64,000 nt of DNA from positions 32,001 through 96,000 of the IMG/VR virus record IMGVR_UViG_3300037424_000434; one strand, written 5' to 3'. Of this stretch, positions 918 through 56,564 are shown in pieces (position 1 is the first letter of the stretch; every line of letters starts with the position of its first letter). The translations under genes and the position numbers were made by a program. This stretch comes from a virus (taxonomy: Duplodnaviria > Caudoviricetes). The notes beneath the pieces were generated by a model that had not been told where the DNA came from, did no database searches, and saw only the letters and a list, made by a program, of their open reading frames with translations.

Positions 918-1547
918 ATGAAATTGAAAATATATGTGTGGATGTTGGTGTTGTTTGTTGTTTTAAGTGGAAATGTTTTTGCTACAGATTTTGATAATAT
1001 TGACCGTGTAATGTTTGCTGTGGCCTCTTTTTCGTTGTTGGCCGATGCGTCACAGACCATGCAGATCCAGTATCACGAGAACCATTTTGAACGGAATCGG
1101 ATGTTAGGCAAACACCCAACAAACGAGAGGGTCACCCTGTATTTTGGGTTGGTTATCCCCGCGACATTTGTCATAAGTCGATATATTTTGGATGGACCAT
1201 GGCGAAAAGTCTATCTGGGTGCAGTCACATTATACGAATTAAATACAGTAAGAAACAATAGTTTAAATGGATTAACTAATGGATTTTCATTGGATACTCA
1301 TAGCTATTTTCATTTCGGTATCAACGTTATTAGTGGGGTGGCAGTACAGAGCATTTTTCCTGAATGGAATGCCCCAACTAAAGTCATTGTGGCCACATTG
1401 CCCATGATGTATAAAGAATTTTTCATGGACGGTTACATCGATGCTGGGGATATATTTTTTAATCTTCTTGGGGCATATGTGGGAGTGGCCACTACTGGTC
1501 ATTTAACCGTCACTAAAAATATGGTTTATTATACGAAAAGGTTTTGA
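918..1547 (+). CDS. Secreted/membrane protein, late
   Basis: Signal-peptide-like N-terminus (LFVVLSGNVFA), hydrophobic segments, strong RBS. Confidence 0.7.
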   Translation: MKLKIYVWMLVLFVVLSGNVFATDFDNIDRVMFAVASFSLLADASQTMQIQYHENHFERNRMLGKHPTNERVTLYFGLVIPATFVISRYILDGPWRKVYLGAVTLYELNTVRNNSLNGLTNGFSLDTHSYFHFGINVISGVAVQSIFPEWNAPTKVIVATLPMMYKEFFMDGYIDAGDIFFNLLGAYVGVATTGHLTVTKNMVYYTKRF

Positions 1548-1637
1548 TGTTCATTGCCATTTTTGTGATTGACCTTTCATACACTATATGCTATAAAAGT
1601 GTATCTCAAAACACCCACAGCATAGAAAGGTAGCATA

Positions 1638-1778
1638 ATGCATTGGTTTATCTTGCTGATTCCCATATTAAGTGCTTGGTTCGCAAAGTTTGTATTAAAA
1701 TCAACAATTACGTGGAAAGAAATGGCCGTTCAGTATGATTTCATTTTTTCTAACCGATTTTGTTCGTTTCGTGTTTGA
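1638..1778 (+). pseudogene. 5' stub of a membrane-protein gene
   Basis: RBS and MHWFILLIPILSAWFAKFVLKSTITWKEM, then rapid loss of frame. Confidence 0.35.
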
Positions 1779-1939
1779 GTTGTTCTGGTGCGGCATCAAA
1801 TCATTACTTGACAAGATCCGCAAACGGGTTCTGGGTGTTGCCGCCCGTGATTTGGATTAACTTTTGTTGTTGACATAAACCACACAAGATGCAATACTAA
1901 ACAAAGCTGATCAATCAATTTGGTCCGACTGGAAAAGAG

Positions 1940-2176
1940 GTGAGTGAGATGTTGCATATTAAAATGGTGTCGCCGGAGATTCTTGAAGTAGAAGAGATAA
2001 TTCACGGTTGGAAGAAAACTTACCGAAAGTTCTATTACACCAATATTAAAACATGGCAAGACTTGACCAACCCCCGTGCCACAAAACAAACCGAAAATTT
2101 TAAAGTGGCAGGAAAATTGGCCGATGGCAGTATAGATTGGATTAAAAAATACCATTTACCAAAAATTACTCAGTGA
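1940..2176 (+). CDS. Hypothetical protein
   Basis: GTG after AAGAGG; TTGACA promoter upstream. Confidence 0.55.
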   Translation: MSEMLHIKMVSPEILEVEEIIHGWKKTYRKFYYTNIKTWQDLTNPRATKQTENFKVAGKLADGSIDWIKKYHLPKITQ

Positions 2177-2207
2177 CTTATACGCGTATCTCATAACAGG
2201 GAGAATT

Positions 2208-2609
2208 ATGTTAAAGAAGGCATTCAATATAGCAAATACATATCACTCAGATCAGGTGGATAAAGCTGGTCGGCCATACATCCTCCACCCCATTGCTGTT
2301 TATCTCAAAGCAATGACAGAAGACGAAAAAATTGTGGCGATACTCCATGATGTTGTCGAAGACACGATTTACACGGAAGAAATGCTTAGATCGGATTTCC
2401 CCGAGCATGTTGCCAATGCTGTAATGGCGGTGACGAAAAGAGAGGGAGAAAGTTACACTGAATTCATCTTGAGGGCCAAAGAAAACCCTATCGCAAGGGC
2501 TGTAAAGGGGTACGATATGGAGCACAACATGAGCTCTAGGGGTGTAGCCATTCCAGATAGTTTAATGGACCGATACGTCAAACACTATAAAATTCTGAAA
2601 GAGGATTGA
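2208..2609 (+). CDS. HD-domain protein, small alarmone hydrolase (SpoT/Mesh1)-like
   Basis: HSDQVDKAGRPYILHP and AILHDVVEDT motifs. Confidence 0.8.
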   Translation: MLKKAFNIANTYHSDQVDKAGRPYILHPIAVYLKAMTEDEKIVAILHDVVEDTIYTEEMLRSDFPEHVANAVMAVTKREGESYTEFILRAKENPIARAVKGYDMEHNMSSRGVAIPDSLMDRYVKHYKILKED

Positions 2610-2794
2610 TCATGAAACTCAAATGTGTTGTATGTGGTGAAGTCGTGGAAAAGCGTCATGGAGCCCAATTCCGTAATCCCTCAAAGATTAATTCTGGGGG
2701 TGGACAAATTATGTTCCCGGTTGCCCATATTAATCCCCAAACAAATGATCCATGCCACGGATTTTACATGGAAGCTTTTGAAGAAGTTGAATAA
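2606..2794 (+). CDS. Small Cys/His-containing hypothetical protein
   Basis: CVVC...HxxxxxxxPCH; coupled to the upstream gene. Confidence 0.5.
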   Translation: MIMKLKCVVCGEVVEKRHGAQFRNPSKINSGGGQIMFPVAHINPQTNDPCHGFYMEAFEEVE

Positions 2795-2878
2795 CTGTAT
2801 TTGTGTCACGGCCCCACGCGGGGTATGAGTAGTTAAAAATATATTAATATATCATAATATTTTCCGAAAGGTTATACC

Positions 2879-4105
2879 ATGACCCCAGTATTGATCGAAA
2901 GCATGTTGGACACTGATCTATACAAGCTTACTATGTGGCAAGCAATGTTCCACAAGTACACCTCAGCAAACACCAAATGGCGATTTAAAGCGCGTAAAGG
3001 AAATGGTTTCCCAAAAAACGGAACATCCGATACTGATTTCCTGTTGGCTCTAAACCAAAGCCTTGATCATCTATGCACTCTGGGGTTTCTCCCAGAAGAT
3101 CTCACATACCTACGTAACCTACGAACAAAAAATGGTACATTGTTGTTTAAGGATGATTTTCTGGAATATCTGCGATTGTTCAAATATAACAGGGAGTATA
3201 TACACGTCTCCGTTGCGGTGGATGGATCATTGGATATTGTCTTGGATGGTCCATGGATGGCTGTTACTGGGCTTGAGGTGCCTGTGCTTGCTATAGTATC
3301 CGAATTGCATAGCATGACCAAGTTTCAGGGTTCAACCCTTCCAGAAGGTAAATCAAGGCTGAAGGAGAAGATTTCTTTTCTGAAAACGAAAGACTCTATG
3401 GGTAAGTTGGCTGGATTTGCTTTTGCTGACTTTGGTACTCGTCGGAGATATAGCTTTAAGTGGCAAAACTATGTATTAGCCGAACTTGTTAAGGAGTTAT
3501 CTCTTGGTGTTCTGGTTGGCACCTCTAATGTATATTATGCCCGGAAGTATAATCTAACTCCAATTGGTACTATGGCTCATGAATTCATACAATGCTTTCA
3601 ACAGCTTGGTGGTCGGTTGGTCGATAGCCAGAAAGCCGCACTTGAGGCATGGGTGCAAGAATATAGAGGCGAATTAGGCATTGCTTTAACTGACACTGTT
3701 GGATTTGATGCTTTTCTGCGAGACTTTGACCTGTACTTTGCCAAACTCTTTGATGGGTGCCGTCATGACAGTGGTGACCCCCAAATATGGTGTGAAAAAC
3801 TTATTGCTCACTATCGAAAGATGGGTATTGACCCAAAAACCAAGACAGCGGTTTTTTCTGATGGGCTTGATTTCGAATTGGCTTATAACTTGTACTACAT
3901 GTTTCGTGACTTTATCAAGGTGAGTTTTGGTATTGGTACCAACCTCATGAATGATATGGGATGTGATGCAATCAGCATTGTGTTAAAGGTGGTCATGCTC
4001 AATGGTGCTCCGGTTGCAAAAGTATCAGATAGCAGGGGCAAGGGAATGTGTGAAGACCCCGAATATGAGTCTTACGTAAACAAAGTGTTTGGGATTGGAG
4101 GTTAG
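2879..4105 (+). CDS. pncB: Nicotinate phosphoribosyltransferase
   Basis: LDTDLYKLTM, DFGTRRRYS, GTSNV, GTMAHE, RHDSGDP, FSDGL, FGIGTNL, KVSD..GK motifs. Confidence 0.95.
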   Translation: MTPVLIESMLDTDLYKLTMWQAMFHKYTSANTKWRFKARKGNGFPKNGTSDTDFLLALNQSLDHLCTLGFLPEDLTYLRNLRTKNGTLLFKDDFLEYLRLFKYNREYIHVSVAVDGSLDIVLDGPWMAVTGLEVPVLAIVSELHSMTKFQGSTLPEGKSRLKEKISFLKTKDSMGKLAGFAFADFGTRRRYSFKWQNYVLAELVKELSLGVLVGTSNVYYARKYNLTPIGTMAHEFIQCFQQLGGRLVDSQKAALEAWVQEYRGELGIALTDTVGFDAFLRDFDLYFAKLFDGCRHDSGDPQIWCEKLIAHYRKMGIDPKTKTAVFSDGLDFELAYNLYYMFRDFIKVSFGIGTNLMNDMGCDAISIVLKVVMLNGAPVAKVSDSRGKGMCEDPEYESYVNKVFGIGG

Positions 4106-4107
4106 TC

Positions 4108-4305
4108 ATGAAAGCATTTGATGAGATGACCGAAAGTGACCTTGAGGCAATCGCGCGTCTTGCCATTAGTACCTCAACTGTGGTACAGTGGGTCTGTGAA
4201 GCATGTTTGCCTGACATTCACAAGGCATTCAATGCAGGACAACCAGAGCATCACAAATGTGAGGTCTGTTTTAAACCCCGAAAATGTTATGAGGTGTTAT
4301 GTTGA
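4108..4305 (+). CDS. Small Zn-ribbon-like hypothetical protein
   Basis: CEAC...CEVC; follows GGAGG RBS. Confidence 0.55.
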   Translation: MKAFDEMTESDLEAIARLAISTSTVVQWVCEACLPDIHKAFNAGQPEHHKCEVCFKPRKCYEVLC

Positions 4306-4529
4306 GTGAATATACTGGTGGTGTTATTGATTCGTTTACTAAAGTGGTTGTGTGCAAGGATTATTTGGATGGTACTAGTCAGGTATTATTCAGAGGTCTA
4401 GCACAAGATGTACATCAATTCATAGAAGAAAATATGAGTGTTTATTGTGATGACATAATGAATGGTCAGCTTTTTGTAATGACTCTTGAGAATTTCACAA
4501 AAGACGCTACTAACGTAACATATAATTAG
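4299..4529 (+). CDS. Hypothetical protein
   Basis: Operon position, GAGGTG RBS. Confidence 0.55.
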
Positions 4530-4543
4530 GAGATCCCAAACAA

Positions 4544-4990
4544 ATGAACATTCCAATGTATCCAAGAAATCCATACTTGACAGTTGATGCTGTTGTACTA
4601 AGATATGCACCCGATGAGTTTGGATGGTTTGCGCCCGAAATTCTATTGGTGAAACGCAAACGCGAACCCATAGGATGGGCTTTGCCCGGTGGGTTTGTTG
4701 ATTACGGGGAATCAACCAAATCAGCGATTATCAGGGAACTTAAAGAGGAAACCGGTTTAACAGTGAAAAACACTCCCGAGCTACTTTGTGTTAGATCAGA
4801 TCCTGACCGTGACCCCAGACAACACACTGTATCAGTGGTGTATCTATTTAACTACTACGAGGGAGAACTGAAAACGAACGACCCCGACGAGGTTGACGAT
4901 ATTAAGTTTTTTCCCTTATCAGAGTTGCCTGATATGGTGTTTGACCACAAAGAAATTCTGAACCTCCATTTGGACTGGATTGGTAGATGA
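4544..4990 (+). CDS. Nudix hydrolase, ADP-ribose pyrophosphatase-like
   Basis: Nudix box [24 protein letters not shown]; RDPR motif typical of ADPR-ases and NrtR-like Nudix domains. Confidence 0.9.
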
Positions 4991-5562
4991 AAATTTTAAT
5001 TTATGGCGGAGCATTTGATCCCGTACATATGGGGCACCTTTCAGTGGCGGATAATGCCCAAACAATGTTTGGATATGACAGGGTGTTGTTTGTCCCCTGT
5101 TATTCATCGATGTATGGGAAAAAAATGGCATCTTTTACGAGCAGATGGGAAATGTTAACCCGCGCTATCAATGATTATAAAAACCCAACATTTCTTGTCT
5201 CTGCCGCCGAAAGGGAACACCCAATAGAAGGAAAAACCTATACTCTCCTTGAATACTTAAAAGTGAAATTTCGGGACATAAACGCCCAAATGGACATATT
5301 GATTGGGTCTGATACCTTAAAACACATCCAGAACTGGTATGAGTTTGAGAAGATAAACGATGAATATGTGTTTATTGTGATGGAGAGATACGGATATCCC
5401 ATCGAAAGTAAGGTGTTAAAGAGAGCGTTCTATGCTTCCTTTCATAACGATTTCGAGATATCATCGACCACAACAAGACATCAACTAAAAACCGTTGGAA
5501 CCAGTTCATTGGTGCCACAAACCGTTGAAAAATATATCAAGGAAAACAACTTATATATCTAA
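4987..5562 (+). CDS. nadD: Nicotinate-nucleotide adenylyltransferase
   Basis: [11 protein letters not shown] (HxGH), [20 protein letters not shown]. Confidence 0.92.
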
Positions 5563-5638
5563 TGCACTGAATACAGATGTTATATTTGAAAAAACGGTAC
5601 TTTATATAAAGAAGTACCCAATATACGGAGGTACAAAA

Positions 5639-6487
5639 ATGCACAAAATTTCTACGGAATATGAGAAAATGTTTAACAATATCACCCAAACCTTTGCTGA
5701 ATACCTAACCAAGCATGATATCAGGACAGTGGTTCTTGGTGTTAGTGGTGGGGTAGATTCGGCGTTAATTGCTGCACTGGCGTTAAACACCAAACCATTG
5801 CTAAGTTTTCCCCTTAACATCATTGGTCGATCTATTACCATTGATAGCAATAAACCAGACGAGATTGCCCGTGCAAAGGCAATTGGTGAGTTGTTCTGTG
5901 ATGACTTCAAAGAACTTGACTTAACCTATGCTTATGGTAACCTGAAGTATTTGATTGAAGCACCAACATTTGTTTCGGTTAATGATAAATTAAATCAAAA
6001 TTTAACGGCAAAAGAGCTTGCTATTGCTAATGGGAACATAAAAGCACGGATTCGAATGATTCAATTATATCACCTTGCTGGTATAAATAAGGGCATGGTC
6101 TTAAGCACCGACAACCTCACAGAGCTTTACATGGGCTTCTGGACCTTGCACGGTGATGTGGGTGATTATGGTATGATCCAAAATCTCTGGAAGACCGAGG
6201 TTTATGGTCTTACTAAACATATAGCCGCAATTTATGACAAAACAGGTGCTAGGGAATGGGGTAGTGCCCTGAGAGCATGTGTAAGAGCCGTGCCAACAGA
6301 TGGTCTTGGTATTACTAATTCGGACCTTGACCAACTGGGAGCGAGGACATATGAAGATGTTGATAGTATCATAATCGACTATTTAAACACAAAACGCGGG
6401 AAACATCCGGTTATTGATCGATATGAAGCAACTCACTATAAGAGGACAAATCCAGTGCATATCCCTCGAAAGGAGATTTTATCATGA
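5639..6487 (+). CDS. nadE: NH3-dependent NAD+ synthetase
   Basis: VLGVSGGVDSAL, GNIKARIRM, STDNLTE..GFWTLHGD, LWKTEV; ATG at 5639 after GGAGG; no glutaminase domain. Confidence 0.93.
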   Translation: MHKISTEYEKMFNNITQTFAEYLTKHDIRTVVLGVSGGVDSALIAALALNTKPLLSFPLNIIGRSITIDSNKPDEIARAKAIGELFCDDFKELDLTYAYGNLKYLIEAPTFVSVNDKLNQNLTAKELAIANGNIKARIRMIQLYHLAGINKGMVLSTDNLTELYMGFWTLHGDVGDYGMIQNLWKTEVYGLTKHIAAIYDKTGAREWGSALRACVRAVPTDGLGITNSDLDQLGARTYEDVDSIIIDYLNTKRGKHPVIDRYEATHYKRTNPVHIPRKEILS

Positions 6488-7005
6488 AAAAAGTATTAAT
6501 TGTTGTTGATATGCTTAACGATTTTATTGACAAAGATGGGGTGCTTTCGTTGGGTCAATCAGGTTTTGATATTGTACCGGTTATCGCTAGGAAAGTTTAT
6601 CTGGCAAGACGACAAGGAGACATGGTTCTGTACCTCAATGACGCTCATGATATTAACGACAAGGAGTTCAATAGATTTCCCTCCCATGCGGTTGTGGGTA
6701 CATGGGGGGCAGAGGTTATCCCGGAACTAACGCCGGTGGCGGGAGATATCATTATACCCAAAAAACGGTATAGCGGATTCTTTGGAACATGTCTACAGGA
6801 AACACTATCAACAGAAAACCCCGATATCATTGAGGTGTGTGGATGTTGCACAAGCATTTGTGTGGCAGGTACTATCGAAGAACTCGCAAACAGGGATTAT
6901 ACAGTGGTTGTTGACAGAAAAGCAGTTGCTGACTTTGATCAAGATGCGCACGAATTCTTTTTAGAATACCAATTTCCTCGTATCTTTGGAATTAATGTTC
7001 TATAA
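6484..7005 (+). CDS. pncA: Nicotinamidase (isochorismatase family)
   Basis: VVDMLNDF, DAH, HAVVGTWGAE, KKRYSGFFGT, GCCTSICV catalytic Cys; operon context. Confidence 0.88.
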   Translation: MKKVLIVVDMLNDFIDKDGVLSLGQSGFDIVPVIARKVYLARRQGDMVLYLNDAHDINDKEFNRFPSHAVVGTWGAEVIPELTPVAGDIIIPKKRYSGFFGTCLQETLSTENPDIIEVCGCCTSICVAGTIEELANRDYTVVVDRKAVADFDQDAHEFFLEYQFPRIFGINVL

Positions 7006-7135
7006 GATTGTCGATGAAATCGAAGATTAATACATTATAATCACACTTTCTCTTTGATTAGGGGAGGTGTACTTATATATACAGAAAGGAACAGTAAACA
7101 AAAAAATACGGCCACTAGTGGTTGTCGGAGATTAA

Positions 7136-8368
7136 ATGACTGATCTAGAACAGAATATAATGAATGATGTTATGGAAAATCCTGATATAGGTAGACGTAA
7201 CTTATCAAGAAAATATGGGGTTTCTGAGAAAAAAATCAGACCCATCCTCAAGAGATGTAAATTGATATTACAAGAACAACGAGAGGAAATTGACGACCCG
7301 GACGAACGGTTAGTGGTATATCTCGCTAAACTAGAAAAACAAAAACAACGACTGATGGACCAACAACGGATTGAACGCAAGATCCGCAACCAAATAAGAG
7401 TTGACAATTCCTTGGCAGACTATGGTGCCGAGATATTAAAGATATTTAAGGAAAGAGAGGTAAACTATACTCTCCCGGTACATCAAGCCAACGACGATGT
7501 AGTTGGTATTTTCCAGATATCAGACACACATTTTAATGAACTAATAAACATTACAGGCAATCAATATGACTTTAAAATCGCAGCAAGGCGGTTACAGAAG
7601 TATGTGAATGTGGCAAAAAAACAATTCAAAACCCATAATATTCAAAAGGTTGTTGTTGCAATGACCGGGGATCTATTAAACTCTGATAGACGATTAGACG
7701 AATTGCTCAACATGGCGACCAACCGGGCAAAAGCAACATCATTGTCGGCGATATTACTGGAACAAGTAATAGTGGATTTGGCCCAAGACTTTGAGGTTAC
7801 GTTGACCTATGTTACCGGGAACGAGTCTCGTGCTGGAGAGTATATGGGTACAACAGAAATTATGATTTCTGACAACTATGATGTAACCATTTTTGAAATG
7901 TTAAAACTGATGTTCAGGGACACGAATGTAAATTTTATCGAAGGATCTGTTGGAGAAAAGGTTGTTCAAATAAAAAACAAAAATGTGTTATTGATCCATG
8001 GACATCAAATGAAAGGAAGTATATCAAAACAATCACAACAAATAAAAGGAAAATACTCCGATCTAAACATTAAAATCGATTATATATTGTTTGGCCATAT
8101 TCACGAATGTTTGATCGCTGATTTTTATGCTCGAAGTTCATCCCTGTGTGGTGCCAATGCATACTCCAACAATCTACTTCAACTGACATCAAGAGCCTCA
8201 CAAAATATCCACTTCGTATCAAACACATCTATTAACTCAATGAAAATCGATCTTCAGGAATATGAGGAGTATGAGGGATACGATATTGACGCTTCGTTGG
8301 AGGCATATAACGCCAAAAGCAGTGAAAAGGGTAAAGATAACACTTTCATTGTTGTTAACATTTTATGA
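7136..8368 (+). CDS. Calcineurin-like metallophosphoesterase with N-terminal HTH/coiled coil
   Basis: SDTH, GDLL, GNE, HGH, GHIH motifs. Confidence 0.8.
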   Translation: MTDLEQNIMNDVMENPDIGRRNLSRKYGVSEKKIRPILKRCKLILQEQREEIDDPDERLVVYLAKLEKQKQRLMDQQRIERKIRNQIRVDNSLADYGAEILKIFKEREVNYTLPVHQANDDVVGIFQISDTHFNELINITGNQYDFKIAARRLQKYVNVAKKQFKTHNIQKVVVAMTGDLLNSDRRLDELLNMATNRAKATSLSAILLEQVIVDLAQDFEVTLTYVTGNESRAGEYMGTTEIMISDNYDVTIFEMLKLMFRDTNVNFIEGSVGEKVVQIKNKNVLLIHGHQMKGSISKQSQQIKGKYSDLNIKIDYILFGHIHECLIADFYARSSSLCGANAYSNNLLQLTSRASQNIHFVSNTSINSMKIDLQEYEEYEGYDIDASLEAYNAKSSEKGKDNTFIVVNIL

Positions 8369-8482
8369 AAAATATACTGAAGAGATATTTGACTTGACAA
8401 ACTCTGATGATAATGTAATACTCACTAAGGATGAAAAATAAATAAAATTCTCCCAAAACAGAATGGACATTATAAAGGATTA

Positions 8483-9805
8483 ATGATGTACGAAATTAAC
8501 GGAAAATATACTAATGCCAAGGTGATGATCGATGATTTAGATGCGTCGGCAGTGAGTCAGATAGTCGAAATGGTAAACAACCAATGTTTCACTAATCCGA
8601 TAGCAATCATGCCCGATGCCCACGCTGGCAAGGGATGTGTTGTAGGTTTTACAATGGAATTATCGGACAAATTGATACCAAATATCATAGGTAGCGATAT
8701 TGGATGTGGTATGCTGTCGTTCAATGTCGGAAGTAACCTATTGTCCAATGAAAAGATGCCATTGTTGGATGAGGCTATTCGTGAGCGGATCCCATTTGGT
8801 GCCTCTGCTAGGGGCAAAATGTCCAAAGATGCCATGTTTGACTGGAAATCCATCAACGATGAACTACGAAAACTCTGTATGGAATACAACACTCGATACA
8901 ACATGTCAATGGCACCTGTTGTTATGGATACGGAAAAGTTACGCGCCATCTTTGATCGAGTAGGATGTGACTATCATAGGGGGATGTTATCTATAGGTTC
9001 ATTGGGGGGCGGCAACCATTTCATTGAGATTGGTAAAGACGAAAACAATGACTATTGGGTAACTATTCATTCCGGTTCGCGTAACTTTGGAAAATGTATT
9101 GCTGAATATTGGCAAAAGATCGCCCATAAGAACATGAACGAGCCTGCTTTATCAAAGACTGATTATGTCGAATTCGTTAAGGCAAATTTCGATAAAATGA
9201 AATGGCAAGACGAAATAGCAAAATACGAGACGTTAGTGGGCGGCAAATCTCGTGTGGGGAAAGGAACCGAATATCTTGAGGGCAAAGATGTTTATGGGTA
9301 TTTGGTTGATATGTTTGTTGCTCAGAAGTACGCCGAGATGAGCCGGTACGTCATGTCATGCGAATTAGTGAACTCTATCCGTGTGGTTTCTGACACGTTT
9401 AAGGGTGTAGTCCAGTGTATTGAAACTGTACACAACTTTGTAGACTTCAAAGACTGGATTATTCGTAAAGGGGCTATTCGTTCATACAAAGGGGAGTTGA
9501 TGATAATCCCCTTCAACATGGAAGATGGGTTGTTGATAGTCGAAGGCAAGTCCAACAACGACTGGAACAACTCAGCGCCTCATGGTGCCGGTCGATTATT
9601 TTCCCGATCTGCGGCAAAAGCCAACCTCGATCTTGATATGGCAACAAAATCAATGAAAGACAATGGTATATATTCTTCGTCCATTCCCTTAGATGAAGTC
9701 AAGGGTGCATATAAGCCTTGTGAAGTCATTGAAGCTTGTATTGAACCAACAGCAACCATCATCCACAGAATAAAACCCGTCATGAACCTGAAGGATGGAC
9801 AGTGA
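8483..9805 (+). CDS. rtcB: RtcB RNA ligase
   Basis: MPDAHAGKG, SDIGCGM, SLGGGNHFIE, HSGSRNFG, HN, RKGA, SAPHGAGR. Confidence 0.95.
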   Translation: MMYEINGKYTNAKVMIDDLDASAVSQIVEMVNNQCFTNPIAIMPDAHAGKGCVVGFTMELSDKLIPNIIGSDIGCGMLSFNVGSNLLSNEKMPLLDEAIRERIPFGASARGKMSKDAMFDWKSINDELRKLCMEYNTRYNMSMAPVVMDTEKLRAIFDRVGCDYHRGMLSIGSLGGGNHFIEIGKDENNDYWVTIHSGSRNFGKCIAEYWQKIAHKNMNEPALSKTDYVEFVKANFDKMKWQDEIAKYETLVGGKSRVGKGTEYLEGKDVYGYLVDMFVAQKYAEMSRYVMSCELVNSIRVVSDTFKGVVQCIETVHNFVDFKDWIIRKGAIRSYKGELMIIPFNMEDGLLIVEGKSNNDWNNSAPHGAGRLFSRSAAKANLDLDMATKSMKDNGIYSSSIPLDEVKGAYKPCEVIEACIEPTATIIHRIKPVMNLKDGQ

Positions 9806-9923
9806 ATTTTCGTATATCAAAGTTATAGAATGCCATCAGAAGACGTTAGAGGAGAGTTGAGCACAGCGGCGGTAAATCCGCTGTGTTTGATTATCCCGGT
9901 GGTTGCTACCTCAAAATATTTAC

Positions 9924-9951
9924 TTGACAACGCAACCGTTTGTGATAAGAT
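9924..9951 (+). promoter_or_regulatory. sigma70-type promoter with extended -10
   Basis: TTGACA-N16-TAAGAT with TGn. Confidence 0.6.
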
Positions 9952-10124
9952 ATAGGTAAATCAAGGCTACGGCATCCGAACAGAGATGTGCGCATTGTAT
10001 GGATAGAGGCCTACAAGTCAGAAACAGTCAACGGGCAAGAAATGGTAAGCCTCCGGTCAATCATATTTTTGATAAGGGATAACAATGAACATTCAGACTA
10101 TAACAAAAAGAGGAGATTGAGAAC

Positions 10125-10430
10125 ATGGTGAATTATCGAGTAGCACGGATGGTCATTCTGTTAGCGTTTATTTTATTATTATGTGTGTCTCTCACGGGAT
10201 GCGCGGATACAATGACATTTATTCAGGCAGCAAAAGCCGAACCGGTTGGGTTTTGGTACGGATTTTGGCACGGGACGATTGCCCCTTTTGCTTGGTTTGT
10301 TTCTCTGTTTAGCGACTCGACCGCCATCTATGCCATATACAACAACGGTGGGTGGTACGATTTTGGTTTTATGTTGGGGATAGGAGGACTATCGAGCAGC
10401 ACGTCAAGTGCGGCCTACGGGTGGCGATAG
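10125..10430 (+). CDS. Putative lipoprotein/membrane protein
   Basis: Lipobox-like SLTGC; GFWYGFWHG...YNNGGWYDFGF. Confidence 0.7.
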   Translation: MVNYRVARMVILLAFILLLCVSLTGCADTMTFIQAAKAEPVGFWYGFWHGTIAPFAWFVSLFSDSTAIYAIYNNGGWYDFGFMLGIGGLSSSTSSAAYGWR

Positions 10431-10441
10431 CAGATAACGAC

Positions 10442-10470
10442 CAAGATCAGCGGATTGTCCGCTGATCTTG
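10442..10470 (+). terminator. Hairpin, probable terminator
   Basis: Perfect 12-bp stem caagatcagcgg/ccgctgatcttg; U-tract not adjacent. Confidence 0.5.
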
Positions 10471-10505
10471 CATGATTAGCTGATTTTTATTAATGGGAGA
10501 GATAT

Positions 10506-16828: not shown

Positions 16829-18088
16829 TTATATCGAGAGCATATACATATAAGCTTTGCCTGACTCGGAACCACCAGCATCATCTTCATTGTATGCGCC
16901 AACAATAGCATAAGAATCACTTATACCAACCGAATAACCAAAGTAATCGTAAGAAGACGTATCATAGGCATTTGGATTATCTAATGTCCATAATAAACCA
17001 CCCGTAGCAGGATTAAATATATAAGCTTTTCCTGAATCGGTGCCCCCGGCATCGTCTTCTGTATATGCCCCAACAATTGCATATGATTCACTTATAGCAA
17101 CTGAATAACCAAACCTATCAGTGGCAGACGTATCATAAGCATTTGGATCGTTTAACGTCCATAATAAACCACCTGTAGCAGGATTAAATATATAAGCTTT
17201 TCCTGACAGTGTGCCACCAGCATCATCTTCTGTATAGGCACCAACAATTGCATATGTTTCACTTATACCAACCGAATATCCAAAAAAATCATTAGCAGAG
17301 GTTGAATACGCATTTGGATTATTTAACGTCCATAATAATGCTCCAGTAGCATTATCGAATATATAAGCTTTTCCGGAAGAACCCCCACCAGCATCATCTT
17401 CGTCCCTTGCGCCAACAATTGCATAAGATTCGCTTATAGCGACAGACCACCCAAACCTATCATTGACAGGGGTTGAATAAGCATTTGGGTTATTTAATGT
17501 CCATAATAATGCTCCTGTAGCAGGATTAAATATATAAGCTTTACCTGAACTGAGGCCACCCTCATCTTCATTGTGCGCACCAACAATTGCATATGATCCA
17601 CTTATGGCAACTGAATATCCAAAAAAATCCATGGCAGAGGTGCCGTAAGCATTTGGATTATCTAATGTCCATAATAATGCTCCAGTAGTTGGATTAAATA
17701 TATAAGCTTTACCCGAATCTCCACCACCAGCATCATCTTCACTATATGCGCCAACGATTGCATATGATTCACTTATGGCGACAGAAAACCCAAAAGAGTT
17801 TCCGGCAGAGGTACCATACGCATTTGGATTATCTAATGTCCATAATAATGCTCCTGTAGCATTATTATATATGTAAGCTTTTCCTGACAGTGTGCCACCA
17901 GCATCATCTTCCCCGTCTGCACCAACTATCGCATACGAAGCACAAACACCAACAGAACGTCCAAACCAGTCAGCAAAGGAGGTATCATAAGCATTTGGAT
18001 TATCAAATGTATACACCGGCACCGTTGGATCGGCTATCGGGGGTGGGGCCAACAACAATTGGATAAAAGAAATAGTTCCTACACTCAT
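16829..18088 (-). CDS. FG-GAP repeat (integrin-alpha-like beta-propeller) protein
   Basis: About 7 repeats of FG.SVAISESYAIVGA..EDDAGG..SGKAYIFN. Confidence 0.9.
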   Translation of the reverse strand: MSVGTISFIQLLLAPPPIADPTVPVYTFDNPNAYDTSFADWFGRSVGVCASYAIVGADGEDDAGGTLSGKAYIYNNATGALLWTLDNPNAYGTSAGNSFGFSVAISESYAIVGAYSEDDAGGGDSGKAYIFNPTTGALLWTLDNPNAYGTSAMDFFGYSVAISGSYAIVGAHNEDEGGLSSGKAYIFNPATGALLWTLNNPNAYSTPVNDRFGWSVAISESYAIVGARDEDDAGGGSSGKAYIFDNATGALLWTLNNPNAYSTSANDFFGYSVGISETYAIVGAYTEDDAGGTLSGKAYIFNPATGGLLWTLNDPNAYDTSATDRFGYSVAISESYAIVGAYTEDDAGGTDSGKAYIFNPATGGLLWTLDNPNAYDTSSYDYFGYSVGISDSYAIVGAYNEDDAGGSESGKAYMYMLSI

Positions 18089-19569
18089 TAATTTTCATCC
18101 CTCTCTTCGCCGTCTTGGGGTTTATCTGTCTCTTCTAATTTTTCTGTAACCGCGTAAACTTTGCCGGGGTTAATAACAGACCCGGAGCGAATCATAAAGT
18201 CTTTATTGATCAGCACCGGGGTAGATTTGTGGCTCCTATCATTAAGATTGAATAATACTCCCTTATACTTAACCCCTTCAAACGTAACATCAAGTTTAAC
18301 AATAGGGCGTTTGTCCATTTTTTCATCTGATGTATGATTGGCTTTGATACGTACACTATCGTATTTCGTTCCTGTCATGCTTTTACCATTAGTGGTCCAC
18401 GTAACCTTGCGTCCTTTGATTTCGATGTCCTGAGCATCCAATGACGCACTCTCAGCAGCATTCCCTGTATCAAACCTTGCGGCAAAATCACCAATACCTT
18501 CAATTGTGATAGTTTCTAGAACCCCAACCTCCTGAGAGGGTCTTGTCCAATTAACGCCATTCTTGACATATTCCATTACCTCTGATATAATGTCTTTTTT
18601 TGTTAATGCCTCAATACCATCTGTGCCAGCGGAGGCATTAACCTCCAGTACATAGGGGTTACCGTCCTTGTCAAACATAATATCAACGCCAAGCCATTTG
18701 CCTCTGACCGCCTTGGCAGCACGTATGGCTAGTTTGGCAGTTGCTTTATCAGGTTCATACTCTCTTGTTGCCCCCCCAAGATGCACGTTACTTCTAAAAT
18801 CCCCTTTCACAACATCTCGTCTCATCGAAGCAATGACTTTATCCCCCAGAACATGGATTCTAACATCATGGTCTGATTGTATATATTCCTGTATCATAAG
18901 TTCTACACCGGAACCAACGGACCATAGCGCCTGTAACGTGGATCTGAGGGCTTTGGCATCTCCTGCAATAGCAACCCCCTTCCCCTGAGTTCCGCTAAGT
19001 GTTTTGATAATTACAGGAAACTGGCCACCAACCTTTTTGTGGGCATACTGGATCATATCCTCATTTGATACCAACATTGATTTGGGGGTGGGAACATTGT
19101 TTTCTGTTAACTTAAGGTAAGTTAGATATTTATCTTCGCATATTTCAAACACAGTGAGTTCGTTGAGAAAACAGAATTTATAGTGCTCCAATTGAGATAT
19201 GAGGTTGCGTGAATATCCATGGAACACAACGCCTCTTCGGGCAATAACAAAGGTTTTGTCTCTGTTAATTCTGAAACCATCGTCATCCCCTACATTGTGG
19301 ATGGTTACCTTTCCGTCTTTCTTTGTCTCCAAATAAGCGGTGTCGGCAAATGCAGTATAGTATTTTATATCATTTCTGGTACAATATGCTTCAAACTTTT
19401 TGATAGTGGGGTTCTTGGAACTTCTGTTCCCCTTGGAATCAGTGGATGATGTGAGCAAAAGAATACTAAGACCGTGAACCTCGTCGATTTTGTCGTTATC
19501 TTCCTCTGGGTCATGTTCTGTTTTTTCTTTAAGTAACCTTAATTGCTCAAACTCTTCTTTTAGTGTCAT
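18088..19569 (-). CDS. rimK: RimK-family ATP-grasp ligase fused to a retropepsin-like (RimB-type) protease
   Basis: IKTLSGTQGKGV, QEYI, DVRI, FRSN, GVDI, LEVN; C-terminal ARFDTGN. Confidence 0.85.
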   Translation of the reverse strand: MTLKEEFEQLRLLKEKTEHDPEEDNDKIDEVHGLSILLLTSSTDSKGNRSSKNPTIKKFEAYCTRNDIKYYTAFADTAYLETKKDGKVTIHNVGDDDGFRINRDKTFVIARRGVVFHGYSRNLISQLEHYKFCFLNELTVFEICEDKYLTYLKLTENNVPTPKSMLVSNEDMIQYAHKKVGGQFPVIIKTLSGTQGKGVAIAGDAKALRSTLQALWSVGSGVELMIQEYIQSDHDVRIHVLGDKVIASMRRDVVKGDFRSNVHLGGATREYEPDKATAKLAIRAAKAVRGKWLGVDIMFDKDGNPYVLEVNASAGTDGIEALTKKDIISEVMEYVKNGVNWTRPSQEVGVLETITIEGIGDFAARFDTGNAAESASLDAQDIEIKGRKVTWTTNGKSMTGTKYDSVRIKANHTSDEKMDKRPIVKLDVTFEGVKYKGVLFNLNDRSHKSTPVLINKDFMIRSGSVINPGKVYAVTEKLEETDKPQDGEERDEN

Positions 19570-31755: not shown

Positions 31756-32022
31756 ATGTTAGAAAAAGGGGATATTGTATACTTTACATCCGAACGTATT
31801 AAGAGAGCTCAAATTGATAAAAACAACCCCAATAGAGCAGATCAATATATACTGAAAAACGCCTACAAAAAATGTATCGTTGATCGTGTCTCATATTGGG
31901 ATAATAAAAGACATATCCGATTAGTCGGTTATCGAAGAGTGTATAATGAAAACTCTTTGACCAAAATAAAACCACCATCACCCTCACAATACATGTTAAA
32001 CAAAGAATTGTTCGTTTTATGA
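31756..32022 (+). CDS. Small SH3-like protein with LF tail
   Basis: MLEKGDIVYF; ends YMLNKELFVL. Confidence 0.7.
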   Translation: MLEKGDIVYFTSERIKRAQIDKNNPNRADQYILKNAYKKCIVDRVSYWDNKRHIRLVGYRRVYNENSLTKIKPPSPSQYMLNKELFVL

Positions 32023-53790: not shown

Positions 53791-54200
53791 ATTATATTTT
53801 TAAAATCTTCGATAGCAACCGCAATTCCCGGTAACCATTTCTTGGTCCATAACCAATCAGTTTTCGTCCAAACAGCCAATTCCCGATCATTCATGAAAAC
53901 AAGAGAATTCAAATCGATTTCCCCTAGAAACATTTCGCCCGGCATCAACGATCCACTATAAGGAGATACCCTGCTATCACCTGATTCTTTTCTAACCAAA
54001 TCCCATATAGCATTATGCAATGCATTGTGAGCATTTGCTATGTAAATCTTTTTGGTTTTCCCGTCAGCAATAAATCGAACATCCCGTCCTATCTTTTGGA
54101 GTTCCTGTCTGGATGGATTAACCCATAAATCAAACTCATTGCCATGATATCTGGAATACCCAAACCATTCCTCTTCTAAGTAACGTTTAAATTTACTCAT
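53787..54200 (-). CDS. Putative internal head protein, NP..E paralog family
   Basis: MSKFKRYLEEEW...LWVNPSRQEL...VRFIAD.K.KKIY. Confidence 0.72.
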   Translation of the reverse strand: MSKFKRYLEEEWFGYSRYHGNEFDLWVNPSRQELQKIGRDVRFIADGKTKKIYIANAHNALHNAIWDLVRKESGDSRVSPYSGSLMPGEMFLGEIDLNSLVFMNDRELAVWTKTDWLWTKKWLPGIAVAIEDFKNII

Positions 54201-55093
54201 ATATTTTTTCCCCACTTATCAGCCAAATATAACAAGAAATCTTTAGCAGAACTAACTTTTGCCAGTTTAAACATTTTCAATAACATTGCGGTAAATTTAA
54301 CATCCGATTTATCGTTGTGTATATCAGCTTCCAATGATGACAAATAATCCTTGAAATAGAAAGCAGTAGCACTCATTCCTGCGATCTTATATGCTATATC
54401 ACTTGCTCTTTTTGAAAGCTTCTCTTTGTCTGTGGTATAAAACAGTTCTTCCCATATCTTAAAATAATTGGTACGAGGAAATTCTTTGCGATACTCCACC
54501 TTCGCTAGTGGCTTTAAATCATCTATATTCACTTTAACTGAATTTTTTTTATTCTGAATCAAAAAATCTTTTTTGTCCTCATAAAAATATATTGGGATTT
54601 TTTTAATCAAAGCATTTTTATATATTGAACGAATGTTTCTGTTTCTAGGGTCGGTTTGGTCTATCCAGCTCCAATTAAACTTAATAGGAACTAACACATG
54701 AATTTCTTTTATGTATTTTGAGGCATTGTCTATCTGAGGCGTCTTGCTGTAGATCCTATCTTCTGCTTCGAATTTCTTTGGATCAATCTTCCTAAACTCT
54801 GGTCCCCAATAATCAACTGCTTCCCCTGAATATTTGTTCGCTAATTTAGATCCATCCAATACCAACATAGCGGTACCCTCTGCTGGATCTAAGCTGAACC
54901 CACCAAGTTTATGTCTAGTTGTGGAGAAATAAAAAAATTTGCCCTTTTTGCTTAGATCAGTTTCGGTGCTCGTTCCAATTGAGGTACTTAGATTGAATTT
55001 ATCTGTCCTCAATATAGCATCCAGTTTGTATATTCCTGTTGAGTGGTATAGGATAGAACTGATACCTTCTATTAAATATTTTTGTAATCTCAT
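54197..55093 (-). CDS. Probable ADP-ribosyltransferase with capsid-targeting-like leader
   Basis: MRLQKYLIE; LYHST (strand-1 His), FYFSTTR, LVLD, EAEDRI (ExE). Confidence 0.6.
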   Translation of the reverse strand: MRLQKYLIEGISSILYHSTGIYKLDAILRTDKFNLSTSIGTSTETDLSKKGKFFYFSTTRHKLGGFSLDPAEGTAMLVLDGSKLANKYSGEAVDYWGPEFRKIDPKKFEAEDRIYSKTPQIDNASKYIKEIHVLVPIKFNWSWIDQTDPRNRNIRSIYKNALIKKIPIYFYEDKKDFLIQNKKNSVKVNIDDLKPLAKVEYRKEFPRTNYFKIWEELFYTTDKEKLSKRASDIAYKIAGMSATAFYFKDYLSSLEADIHNDKSDVKFTAMLLKMFKLAKVSSAKDFLLYLADKWGKNI

Positions 55094-55172: not shown

Positions 55173-56564
55173 TCAGGAAAGTTCTTTGTGGACATCCTTT
55201 ATCAGTTTTCTGATACAAACAAACACATCAGAATCAATGAATCTATCGGTGACTTTTTTCTTGATAGCCCCAACCATCTGTCCGGGTTTGATATCAAGAA
55301 GATCCATTATATCTCTGCCATTGACCACTTCAATGGAGTTGTGGTTGGCGTCCACAAAGGCCGAGAATTCCCTCCCCAGTTCTTCAGATTTTCTAAGAAT
55401 TTCAAAATATGGTTCGAAGTCGAATCCGTTACCATTACACTTGGCATCACAGTAAACCACGTTTTTGAGAGTATCCCAGTGTTCGTGGGTAACAATTTTT
55501 GCTACCTTGGATTTTTTCATTTTGTCGATGTTGAGAACTTTCATGTGTTCCCCTGTAGTAAATTTCAGGAGAGCTTTTTCCGCCCCACTCATTTTCAATC
55601 TATTAGCGATAGATGATACAATATCCACCCCGACCACATCATGACTGAAGAACCTATGAGCTTTTTTTTCTTCATCCCATTCATGGGTGGTGGCTTTACC
55701 GAGGTCATGAAACAGAACAGCAAAGTTGGACAGAGCATCCTCTTTGGTGTTCTCTCTAACAGCACACAGCACATGATCATACACTCGACCTTTACCATGG
55801 GTATATGCTTCTGGGTGCCATCTCTGGGTTTCAAACACATCTTGAAGAGCTTTGACTTCTGGAAGAATGTGGATCAGAAGACCAACTTCATCCAACAGTT
55901 CAATTGCATCAGCAAAATGTTTGCCGTCCAGACTAGCCATTTTGAATAGTTCGTCCTTGATACGCTCAACAGAAATCTTTTTGATCAGACAAGCATCATC
56001 ATTAATTGCTTCAAATACTTCTGGGTCAAGTTTGAATCCGAACCGGACAGCGAACCGGACAGCTCGGAGCATTCTCAGATGATCCTCATTGAAACGTTCT
56101 TTGGCAACACCAACAGCGGCAACCACACCTTTATTGATTGCCTCAACCCCACCAACAAAGTCAACAAGGCGTCCATCTTTATCTAGACCCATGGCATTGA
56201 TGGTAAAGTCTCTACGCTGAACGTCCTCTTCAAAGCTCTGAGTAGCTTGAACTTCGTCAGGTCTGCGACCATCGGTATAAGCACCCTCGGTACGCCACTG
56301 GGCGATTTCGAAGTTGAACCCTTTGTGAGGAACAACCACGATACCAAAAGATTTGCCAGCACCAACATCAAAGCTGGTGAACATCTCACCAAGAGCACTC
56401 ATGGAAGCATTTGTCGCGATATCCACGTCCTTTGCTTCAACCCCAAGCAACAAATCTCTAACGCATCCACCAACAAAGTATGCCTCATATCCAGCATCAG
56501 TTAGTTGGACAAGAAGTTCGCGACCCGCTCGGAACATTTCATTTGTCATCATTTTTTTATACAT
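55173..56564 (-). CDS. cca: CCA-adding tRNA nucleotidyltransferase with HD domain
   Basis: VGGCVRDLLLG, DVDIAT, RRDFTINAM, EDHLRMLRAVRF, ERIKDEL, LFHDLGK. Confidence 0.92.
   Translation of the reverse strand: MYKKMMTNEMFRAGRELLVQLTDAGYEAYFVGGCVRDLLLGVEAKDVDIATNASMSALGEMFTSFDVGAGKSFGIVVVPHKGFNFEIAQWRTEGAYTDGRRPDEVQATQSFEEDVQRRDFTINAMGLDKDGRLVDFVGGVEAINKGVVAAVGVAKERFNEDHLRMLRAVRFAVRFGFKLDPEVFEAINDDACLIKKISVERIKDELFKMASLDGKHFADAIELLDEVGLLIHILPEVKALQDVFETQRWHPEAYTHGKGRVYDHVLCAVRENTKEDALSNFAVLFHDLGKATTHEWDEEKKAHRFFSHDVVGVDIVSSIANRLKMSGAEKALLKFTTGEHMKVLNIDKMKKSKVAKIVTHEHWDTLKNVVYCDAKCNGNGFDFEPYFEILRKSEELGREFSAFVDANHNSIEVVNGRDIMDLLDIKPGQMVGAIKKKVTDRFIDSDVFVCIRKLIKDVHKELS

Follow-up and report, generated by a model that had tools for sequence, protein, structure and literature searches.

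Can a T4-like jumbo phage make NAD+ from nicotinamide with enzymes of its own, and if so, by which chemistry and to meet which demand? The question is raised by a run of genes within a 64,000-nucleotide stretch of viral DNA (the window; positions 32,001 to 96,000 of record IMGVR_UViG_3300037424_000434), which belongs to a 236-kb, 98% complete phage record of sediment metagenome origin. We consider it likely that these genes form a functional cassette by which the phage synthesizes NAD+ through a deamidating PncA and the Preiss-Handler route. The features of the locus, in window coordinates, are the following.

2879-7005, + strand: NAD salvage cassette, tightly packed and ending at a terminator-like hairpin
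2879-4105, + strand: pncB, type-I nicotinate phosphoribosyltransferase, 408 aa (NCBIfam and Pfam matches)
4108-4305, + strand: small Cys-rich (zinc-ribbon-like) ORF, 65 aa, behind GGAGG and 2 nt past the pncB stop
4299-4529, + strand: small orphan ORF, 76 aa, with a 7-nt overlap with the preceding ORF
4544-4990, + strand: stand-alone Nudix hydrolase, 148 aa (PF00293, 93.8 bits)
4987-5562, + strand: nadD, nicotinate-mononucleotide adenylyltransferase, 191 aa (TIGR00482, PF01467)
5596-5618, + strand: 8-bp hairpin in the nadD-nadE spacer (fold of 5560-5645, z-score -1.5, not significant)
5639-6487, + strand: nadE, NH3-dependent NAD+ synthetase, 282 aa (TIGR00552, PF02540)
6484-7005, + strand: pncA-type nicotinamidase gene (isochorismatase family), 173 aa, short form (PF00857, 114.7 bits)
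7043-7070, + strand: 11-bp terminator-like hairpin that closes the cassette (fold z-score -2.6)

The initial annotation described a co-directional run of five genes with overlapping Nudix/nadD and nadE/pncA junctions. All five are indeed intact on the + strand, and both junctions overlap in an ATGA (4987-4990 and 6484-6487); the run itself comprises seven ORFs rather than five, because two small unannotated ORFs lie between pncB and the Nudix gene. The 65-aa ORF found no match in Pfam, NCBIfam or PHROG searches and only unnamed small proteins in the Atlas, and has weak homologues (28-41% identity) in the same slot of three related loci (L002, L095 and L097); the 76-aa ORF has neither a family match (Pfam, NCBIfam, PHROG) nor a homologue in any related locus. 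This interval is variable in general: relatives have between none and four other small ORFs here, or a gene resembling a homing endonuclease. Further downstream, a start of nadE at TTG 5495 was rejected: ATG 5639 has GGAGG upstream and yields 282 aa, which fits the 272-288 aa of its relatives, and is thus most likely the genuine start. With this start, nadD and nadE are separated by 76 nt, and the hairpin in this spacer found no match in an Rfam search. The next gene after the cassette, encoding an exonuclease, starts at 7136. The close packing, the two ATGA overlaps and the closing hairpin are consistent with a single transcription unit.

Are these genes what they appear to be? The four enzymes of the pathway stand as initially assigned, by curated model cut-offs for PncB, NadD and NadE and by conserved active-site residues. 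PncB scores 489 bits with NF003704 (cut-off 379) and 415 bits with TIGR01514 (cut-off 269), is matched by both PF17767 and PF04095 and has no match to Nampt models. It contains FGTRRR at residues 185-190 and GTMAHE at 230-235, the latter harbouring the predicted phospho-histidine His234, which is invariant in 20 homologues. NadD reaches 126.5 bits with TIGR00482 (cut-off 112.45), is also matched by PF01467, and displays HMGH (HxGH) at residues 14-17 and, from the ISSTxxR motif, ISST at 158-161. It is the most divergent member of the cassette, at 34-44% identity to its relatives, and nadD is missing from, and hence dispensable in, one relative of 239 kb (L009/L010). NadE scores 115.9 bits with TIGR00552 (cut-off 63.65), also matches PF02540, aligns with phrog_11189 (E 2e-27) and carries the PP-loop SGGVDS at residues 36-41; since it lacks a glutaminase domain, it is assigned to the NH3-dependent type.

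Whether the route truly begins at nicotinamide depends on the isochorismatase-family protein. If it were another amidohydrolase, nicotinate rather than nicotinamide would be the compound at which the phage enters the pathway. NF008623, the PncA model of NCBIfam, covers just 63 residues at the N-terminus and scores 23.5 bits where 174 are required, and the top PDB matches are unnamed isochorismatase-family structures. Nevertheless, we regard this alternative as very unlikely: the catalytic Asp/Lys/Cys triad of E. coli PncA is matched exactly in the alignment by D9, K93 and C126, its Asp-His-His metal site by D53, H55 and H68, and none of the six residues varies within the family, whose members share 55-68% identity with the protein. 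Nicotinamidases (3o90, 3s2s and 1ilw) are among its PDB relatives, and a pncA-like gene lies at most 6 kb from pncB in 53 of 81 viral PncB loci. The substrate of the Nudix hydrolase is a subtler matter. Its Nudix box (G50-x5-E56-x7-REUXEEXGU, residues 50-72) is complete, RDPR and FDH are found at residues 89-92 and 133-135, and the enzyme is kept in every related cassette. In NCBIfam it comes closest to the models for NtrR and for the Nudix half of bifunctional NMN adenylyltransferase/Nudix enzymes, its PDB relatives include 2fml, NrtR 3gz5 and NadM-Nudix 2qjt, and among phage proteins it matches the Nudix portion of NadM/NatV-like enzymes (29-35% identity). Its placement in an NAD-metabolism-linked clade (NadM-Nudix/NrtR) is thus supported by sequence, and it is probably an ADP-ribose pyrophosphatase. 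P87 is located 15 residues past the box, which we take to fit the signature of such enzymes (Dunn et al. 1999). Alternatively, it might hydrolyse NAD(H) or NaAD and in this way regulate the pathway, act as a decapping enzyme on NAD-capped RNA, or break down immune signals derived from ADP-ribose. All NCBIfam matches are far below their cut-offs, with no equivalog threshold reached, the best PDB relative (2yyh) is without an assigned substrate, and NadM-fused Nudix domains have been proposed to hydrolyse NAD+ and thereby regulate its level (Iyer et al., PMC7824862). We nonetheless deem these roles rather unlikely, because the closest named relatives appear to be domains that bind or hydrolyse ADP-ribose (NadM-Nudix, NrtR/NtrR and database entries with ADP-ribose pyrophosphatase as their title). 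Moreover, a different Nudix subtype (E-x-PAG-x-x-D), which presumably resembles NudF-type ADP-ribose pyrophosphatases, adjoins the same pathway genes in other phages.

The order pncB-Nudix-(nadD)-nadE-pncA is shared by nine or more contigs of related jumbo phages (L002, L009/L010, L011/L012, L013/L014, L095, L096, L097 and the P0003 contig among them), with open frames and 32-74% protein identity, and given this conservation it is more than chance. From a broader perspective, a survey of 81 IMG/VR PncB loci found pncA and nadE nearby in 39 and all four enzymes in 12, four of which also have a Nudix gene. Preiss-Handler and Nudix genes are paired in unrelated phages too, namely Bacillus phage G and the phages of IMG/VR loci L053, L064 and L066.

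Which pathway, then, does the cassette represent? The initial annotation set the route apart from the phage pathways NARP1 and NARP2, and this distinction is borne out by a PncB-type NAPRTase, an NadD-type adenylyltransferase and the absence of a Prs/Adps-like gene. Across the whole genome, the parts of NARP2 (Nampt and NadM/NatV) were not found, the single PF04095 gene being of PncB type and the single PF01467 (CTP_transf_like) gene being nadD; nor were those of NARP1 (Prs-like Adps and Namat), with no PF13793 match and no second NAPRTase-family gene, or those of NARP3 (PnuC and NadR), with no PF04973 match and no further adenylyltransferase. Lacking Nampt, Prs/Adps, PnuC and a second adenylyltransferase, the system is not NARP1, NARP2 or NARP3. 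The same lack of PF13793 throughout the 98% complete genome upholds the claim that no PRPP synthetase is encoded and supports the corollary that host Prs would be needed. The description of the route as a third chemistry for countering NAD depletion is, in contrast, outdated, because NARP3 (PnuC plus NadR) was published in 2026 (PMC13464706).

The closest comparison among these pathways is NARP2 of Vibrio phage KVP40 (Nampt plus Nmnat/Nudix), which, like the cassette, is a PRPP-dependent classical salvage from nicotinamide and has a Nudix domain related to that of the cassette (phage NadM-Nudix, 29-35% identity). NARP2 is amidated and proceeds via NMN with two enzymes, whereas the cassette is deamidated and proceeds via nicotinate, NaMN and NaAD with four; the cassette has no Nampt, and its Nudix is a separate protein encoded ahead of an NadD-type rather than an NadM-type adenylyltransferase. 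NARP1 and NARP3 share with the proposed role of the cassette the rebuilding of NAD+ by phage enzymes under NADase attack. NARP1, however, reuses ADP-ribose directly via ADPR-PP, whereas the cassette would split it and is accompanied by no Prs-like gene, and NARP3 imports nicotinamide riboside, for which this genome has neither PnuC nor an NadR-type enzyme.

The combination of five functions is not new to phages, having already been annotated in the cultured jumbo Bacillus phage G (NC_023719 / JN638751), where one co-directional run (gp273-gp283) encodes a Nudix (gp273), an isochorismatase/PncA-like protein (gp275), a nicotinate phosphoribosyltransferase (gp277), an NaMN adenylyltransferase (gp281) and an NAD synthetase (gp283). 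The two Nudix proteins are homologous (33% identity, E 6e-15, shared RDPR and FDHK motifs) but differ in length (251 aa in phage G, 148 aa in the cassette), and the PncA-like proteins are 32% identical. The PncB of phage G, in contrast, is of the long type (487 aa) and just 24% identical to that of the cassette, the gene order differs, spacer genes lie between the enzymes, a KptA-like NAD-dependent RNA 2'-phosphotransferase is included and the host is a Firmicute. Evidently, the two clusters were assembled independently. Clusters of pncB, nadD and nadE have also been reported in the 'NAD-jumbo phages' Kuafu_71 and Kuafu_19 of gut Bacteroidota, in a purely bioinformatic study that interprets them as a complete nicotinate-to-NAD+ pathway and describes co-encoded NAD+ consumers such as ligases (Li et al., Microbiome 2024, PMC11662467). 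That paper mentions pncA only in passing and Nudix not at all (0 occurrences), whereas pncA and the Nudix gene are fixed in the present family and nadD is variable. Finally, bacterial PncA-PncB-NadD-NadE salvage with an NrtR/NadM-type Nudix uses the same enzyme families and chemistry, and in bacteria the tie of this Nudix clade to genes of NAD metabolism is an established one (NCBIfam model names). As compared to these bacterial systems, the cassette is compact, without a recognisable regulator domain, and vertically kept in a lytic-type T4-like phage family.

Two further explanations concern the cluster as a whole. It might have no phage function, having been taken up from a host only recently or joined to the phage by misassembly, and outside phages the PncB sequences closest to this one, which are probably cellular, do reach about 50-57% identity. 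This reading is already contradicted by the conservation data, and we hold it to be extremely improbable: the cassette is located in the interior of the 98% complete 236-kb record, its GC content matches that of the flanking DNA, the PncB proteins of the phage family form one monophyletic clade (23 tips, support 1.0) with 60-74% identity between this PncB and its relatives, and gene order is held down to 60% PncB identity. Considerably more weight is due to the possibility that the cassette serves housekeeping alone, as an auxiliary metabolic module that supplies NAD+ to the phage's own NAD-dependent DNA ligase and to possible ADP-ribosylating enzymes during massive DNA replication and affords no meaningful protection against NADase defences. 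The phage has a direct need of NAD+, since LigA, the one DNA ligase recognisable in its genome, is NAD-dependent, and a search for an ATP-dependent ligase found none; a LigA homologue is also present on a 239-kb contig of the same size as the relative L009/L010. NARP2 raised NAD+ in the absence of any defence system as well (10.1101/2024.02.11.579819), and Li et al. read their clusters as support for phage NAD+ consumers (PMC11662467). The ligase is the verified NAD+ consumer of this phage; the candidate ORF for an ART of its own (54197-55093) drew weak Atlas leads only and no match in Pfam or PHROG. Against the purely housekeeping role, LigA yields NMN rather than nicotinamide, and NMN is unusable by the cassette without an NMN deamidase, none of which is encoded, so that ligase turnover alone does not explain the PncA entry. 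LigA is moreover present in just five of 12 near-complete PncB-bearing viral records and absent from the other seven, and PncA and Nudix instead suit the pair of compounds that NAD+ glycohydrolysis releases, nicotinamide and ADP-ribose. On balance, we see an exclusively housekeeping function as possible but doubtful; in any case, housekeeping and anti-defence roles are not mutually exclusive and can coexist.

How might the cassette operate during infection? A literature search found no enzyme activity, expression data, infection phenotype or anti-defence test for the cassette or its homologues, and we infer its substrates, flux and timing, along with the recycling of ADP-ribose and whatever benefit it may bring against defences. 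We envision a scenario whereby PncA would convert nicotinamide to nicotinate, which type-I PncB would join with host-made PRPP to give NaMN; NadD would then adenylate NaMN to NaAD, and the NH3-dependent NadE would amidate NaAD to NAD+. The most likely reaction of the Nudix enzyme is cleavage of ADP-ribose to AMP and ribose-5-phosphate, which would clear the second product of NAD+ breakdown and return its carbon to the PRPP pool. If expressed in infection, the cassette would thus sustain NAD+ whatever the drain. NARP2 restores NAD+ and defeats Thoeris and DSR2 (Osterman et al., 10.1101/2024.02.11.579819); if NARP2 and NARP3 are a guide, NAD+ synthesis by the cassette would weaken Thoeris, DSR, SIR2-HerA and similar NADase defences as well.

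The record whose bases 32001-96000 form the window is a single IMG/VR virus record of 235,765 bp from a sediment metagenome assembly, rated 98% complete, with 39% GC and 27 tRNA genes, and its gene content points to a T4-like jumbo phage. The initial annotation had described a co-directional run of five NAD-related genes with overlapping junctions; all of these parts are present, but two small ORFs and a spacer between nadD and nadE had been overlooked. The features are as follows:

2879-4105, + strand: pncB
4108-4305, + strand: Cys-rich ORF of 65 aa, starting 2 nt past the pncB stop
4299-4529, + strand: orphan ORF of 76 aa
4544-4990, + strand: Nudix gene
4987-5562, + strand: nadD, ATGA overlap with the Nudix gene
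76 nt between nadD and nadE: spacer containing an 8-bp hairpin
5639-6487, + strand: nadE, ATG at 5639 the most likely start, with GGAGG before it
6484-7005, + strand: pncA, ATGA overlap with nadE
7043-7070, + strand: terminator-like hairpin of 11 bp
214659-216470 of the whole record (G000:C1; 1279-3090 of the ligase-bearing locus L006), outside the window: LigA

In the public PncB gene call (P0001, 390 aa), the start lies 18 codons past the ATG at 2879, so that window 2879-2932 is omitted; a longer predicted form of 408 aa is favoured by homologues and by the NF003704 model. An Rfam scan of window 1500-10500 returned no riboswitch or other RNA family, and a comparison of eight relatives showed no conserved promoter ahead of pncB, a ribosome-binding site being all that these upstream regions have in common. 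Counts of consensus promoter-like sites did not exceed those in shuffled sequence, and the hairpins upstream of pncB and in the nadD-nadE spacer were not significantly stable in a fold test. Two promoter-like pairs with identical hexamers were seen, TTGACA-17-AATACT with an upstream TG at window 1870-1898 and 8394-8422, and TTGACA-16-TAAGAT at 4577-4604 and 9924-9951.

What do the encoded enzymes do? PncB clears two curated nicotinate-phosphoribosyltransferase models with a wide margin, has no match to Nampt models, and carries a His234 (in GTMAHE) that is invariant across 20 homologues. NadD clears TIGR00482 and contains the HMGH and ISST motifs, while NadE clears TIGR00552, has the PP-loop SGGVDS and is of the ammonia-dependent type, given that a glutaminase domain is absent. 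The isochorismatase-family protein does not reach the cut-off of the curated PncA model; an alignment with E. coli PncA shows that the catalytic Asp9/Lys93/Cys126 and the metal site Asp53/His55/His68 are retained without exception in this protein and its phage relatives, and the PDB relatives of the window protein include solved nicotinamidases. In the Nudix protein the catalytic box is complete. Among named proteins, it is closest to the Nudix halves of NadM-Nudix enzymes, to the ADP-ribose-sensing repressor NtrR/NrtR and to entries named 'ADP-ribose pyrophosphatase', and for this reason its substrate is probably ADP-ribose. Cultured phages encode homologues of it as the Nudix half of NadM/NatV-like enzymes, that is, of the NARP2 adenylyltransferase. 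Taken at the level of sequence, the best reading is that the cassette would constitute a working deamidating salvage module.

How does this module relate to the characterised phage pathways? NARP1 and NARP2 defeat NAD+-depleting defences, in a preprint that does not mention the deamidated route (10.1101/2024.02.11.579819), and NARP3 consists of PnuC and NadR (PMC13464706). The present genome encodes a single NAPRTase-family protein, a single Nudix protein and a single adenylyltransferase, and gives no match to Prs, PnuC, CinA/PncC, Macro or NADAR. Because the NAPRTase-family gene, of PncB type, and the adenylyltransferase gene are the only ones of their kind, and because Prs and PnuC are missing, the cassette is none of the three. 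Likewise, with no Prs match anywhere in this 98%-complete genome, PRPP must be supplied by the host. The earlier interpretation thus stands in its enzyme chemistry, its dependence on host Prs and its distinction from NARP1 and NARP2, and is not supported on two points. The pathway cannot be called a "third chemistry", since three phage counter-pathways, NARP3 among them, have already been shown experimentally; and the phage's own ART, which the module might instead have fed, comes down to a candidate ORF (298 aa, window 54197-55093, - strand) that matches neither Pfam nor PHROG and has weak Atlas leads of DarT/PARP/DUF952 type.

Elsewhere in the window, an RtcB RNA ligase (8483-9805, + strand) and a tRNA nucleotidyltransferase (55173-56564, - strand) suggest a putative RNA-repair set, and RtcB adjoins the NAD cassette in four related jumbo-phage loci (L002, L009, L095, L096). 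A 493-aa protein (18088-19569, - strand) matches phrog_2599, RimK-like ribosomal protein S6 glutaminyl transferase (E 9e-19). Upstream of pncB, here and in L002 and L095, lies a small HD-domain ORF (133 aa, 2208-2609, + strand; PF13328, the N-terminal 84 positions of TIGR00691, phrog_990), which matches the hydrolase end of RelA/SpoT and looks like a small alarmone hydrolase.

The cassette is well conserved among related phages. Close PncB homologues are 60-76% identical, and the next group, at no more than 57%, comprises other, probably cellular, sequences. The relatives' contigs reach 239 kb and 217 kb and carry T4-like neighbours, among them family B DNA polymerase, RtcB, ClpP and homing endonucleases. 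Gene order is constant, with Nudix, nadD, nadE and pncA following pncB after a stretch that holds zero to four small ORFs or an endonuclease-like gene. Every related cassette includes the Nudix gene, and nadD is missing from the 239-kb phage. Identity to the window is highest for PncB (60-74%) and descends through PncA (55-68%), NadE (46-61%) and Nudix (32-55%) to NadD (34-44%). In a PncB tree of 204 sequences, the phage family forms one clade (23 tips, support 1.0), which speaks for one acquisition and retention ever since. The gap between pncB and the Nudix gene is a variable slot, occupied by the two small ORFs in the window. Genes resembling homing endonucleases (DUF723/CapR-type, GIY-YIG) lie in or beside relatives' cassettes (L011, 9252-10202; L013, 79-750 and 3247-4635; the P0003 contig). 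In the related locus L097 (8368-9467), nadD is followed by ORFs of 98 and 123 aa and then by a 143-aa NAD_synthase fragment reaching the contig end; an interrupted or split nadE is possible in this relative.

How widespread is the route beyond this family? A scan of IMG/VR yielded two loci with a single-protein query and 129 PncB-encoding stretches with an alignment query, of which the best 80, together with one earlier locus, were examined with profiles iterated from the window's own proteins. The region within 6 kb of pncB contained both pncA and nadE in 39 of these 81 loci, all four enzymes in 12, the Nudix gene in addition in 4, and no partner in 13; the partner counts are lower bounds, since contig ends cut loci and distant types may escape the profiles. 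Most large PncB-bearing records are real phage genomes, judging by the 33 records examined, of which only 2 are classed as proviruses and 8 have terminal repeats, and LigA is encoded by 5 of the 12 PncB-bearing records that are at least 90% complete. Some unrelated phage loci have an adjacent Nudix gene of a different subtype, which suggests that Nudix proteins were recruited to the pathway repeatedly. Partial gene sets occur in Sinorhizobium phage Phosso, a 117-kb faecal phage and Agrobacterium phage Atu_ph07; a DNA-level search of cultured phage records with the cassette gave no match. The best "phage" PncB matches, under the name 'Acinetobacter phage MD-2021a', were discarded as mislabelled bacterial chromosome; in the record L005 (CAKLQH020000008.1), which is ordinary Acinetobacter chromosome, pncB is surrounded by thiL, nusB, ribH, serB and phoBR. 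A Moraxella Mcat17 match, unannotated and close to the record end, was left out.

Bacillus phage G offers a parallel, an annotated run of Nudix, isochorismatase, nicotinate phosphoribosyltransferase, KptA, NaMN adenylyltransferase and NAD synthetase, in which the Nudix protein is homologous to ours whereas PncB is of another type. Within this cluster, gp280 (5536-6096 of the phage G locus L098) is a KptA/Tpt1-like NAD-dependent RNA 2'-phosphotransferase, and phage G thus has a nicotinamide-releasing NAD+ consumer beside recycling genes. Complete salvage or Preiss-Handler pathways have been reported in 174 of 668 gut jumbo phages, with pncB-nadD-nadE clusters shown by bioinformatics without experiments (Li et al., 2024, PMC11662467); Iyer et al. 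(2021, 2022; including PMC7824862) treat only NadV, NadM and NadR. The "pncB + prs" genes of Barbavirus (PMC6715854) are, by our own inference, probably NARP1, a Prs-like and an NAPRTase-like protein, rather than Preiss-Handler genes. We found no published test of a phage PncA/PncB route.

We envision that a deamidating salvage module would hold NAD+ available during infection. Plausibly, it would supply the phage's NAD-dependent DNA ligase, which is full-length (adenylation, OB, HhH and BRCT domains; phrog_3869, E 8e-119), has a 52% identical homologue on a 239-kb contig and is accompanied by no detectable ATP-dependent ligase (PF01068) in the genome. It is also plausible that it would offset NADase defences, NAD+ depletion being a common bacterial defence. 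The two benefits are compatible. A link to NAD+ glycohydrolysis is favoured, because PncA is predicted to take nicotinamide and the Nudix protein probably takes ADP-ribose; ligase turnover fits less well, because its product NMN is unusable by a cassette without NMN deamidase. On a wider proposal, which we advance tentatively and rate a little below an even chance, PncA-PncB-(NadD)-NadE with a dedicated ADP-ribose Nudix would be a fourth phage NAD+-reconstitution pathway, the first via deamidated intermediates. Phages would thereby be rescued from depletion of the Thoeris/DSR/SIR2-HerA type, with nicotinamide recycled directly and ADP-ribose returned to PRPP through ribose-5-phosphate and host Prs, and the pathway would have been assembled independently several times by jumbo phages of different bacterial phyla.

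The cassette does not represent a new type of system; it is chiefly valuable as a further well-conserved example of a deamidating route that is widespread in uncultured large phages and that a few isolates also carry, Bacillus phage G being one. Three useful facts emerge from this phage family: the Nudix gene is fixed in the cassette, nadD is optional, and an NAD-dependent ligase is relied on. Together, they suggest which genes a minimal construct should include.
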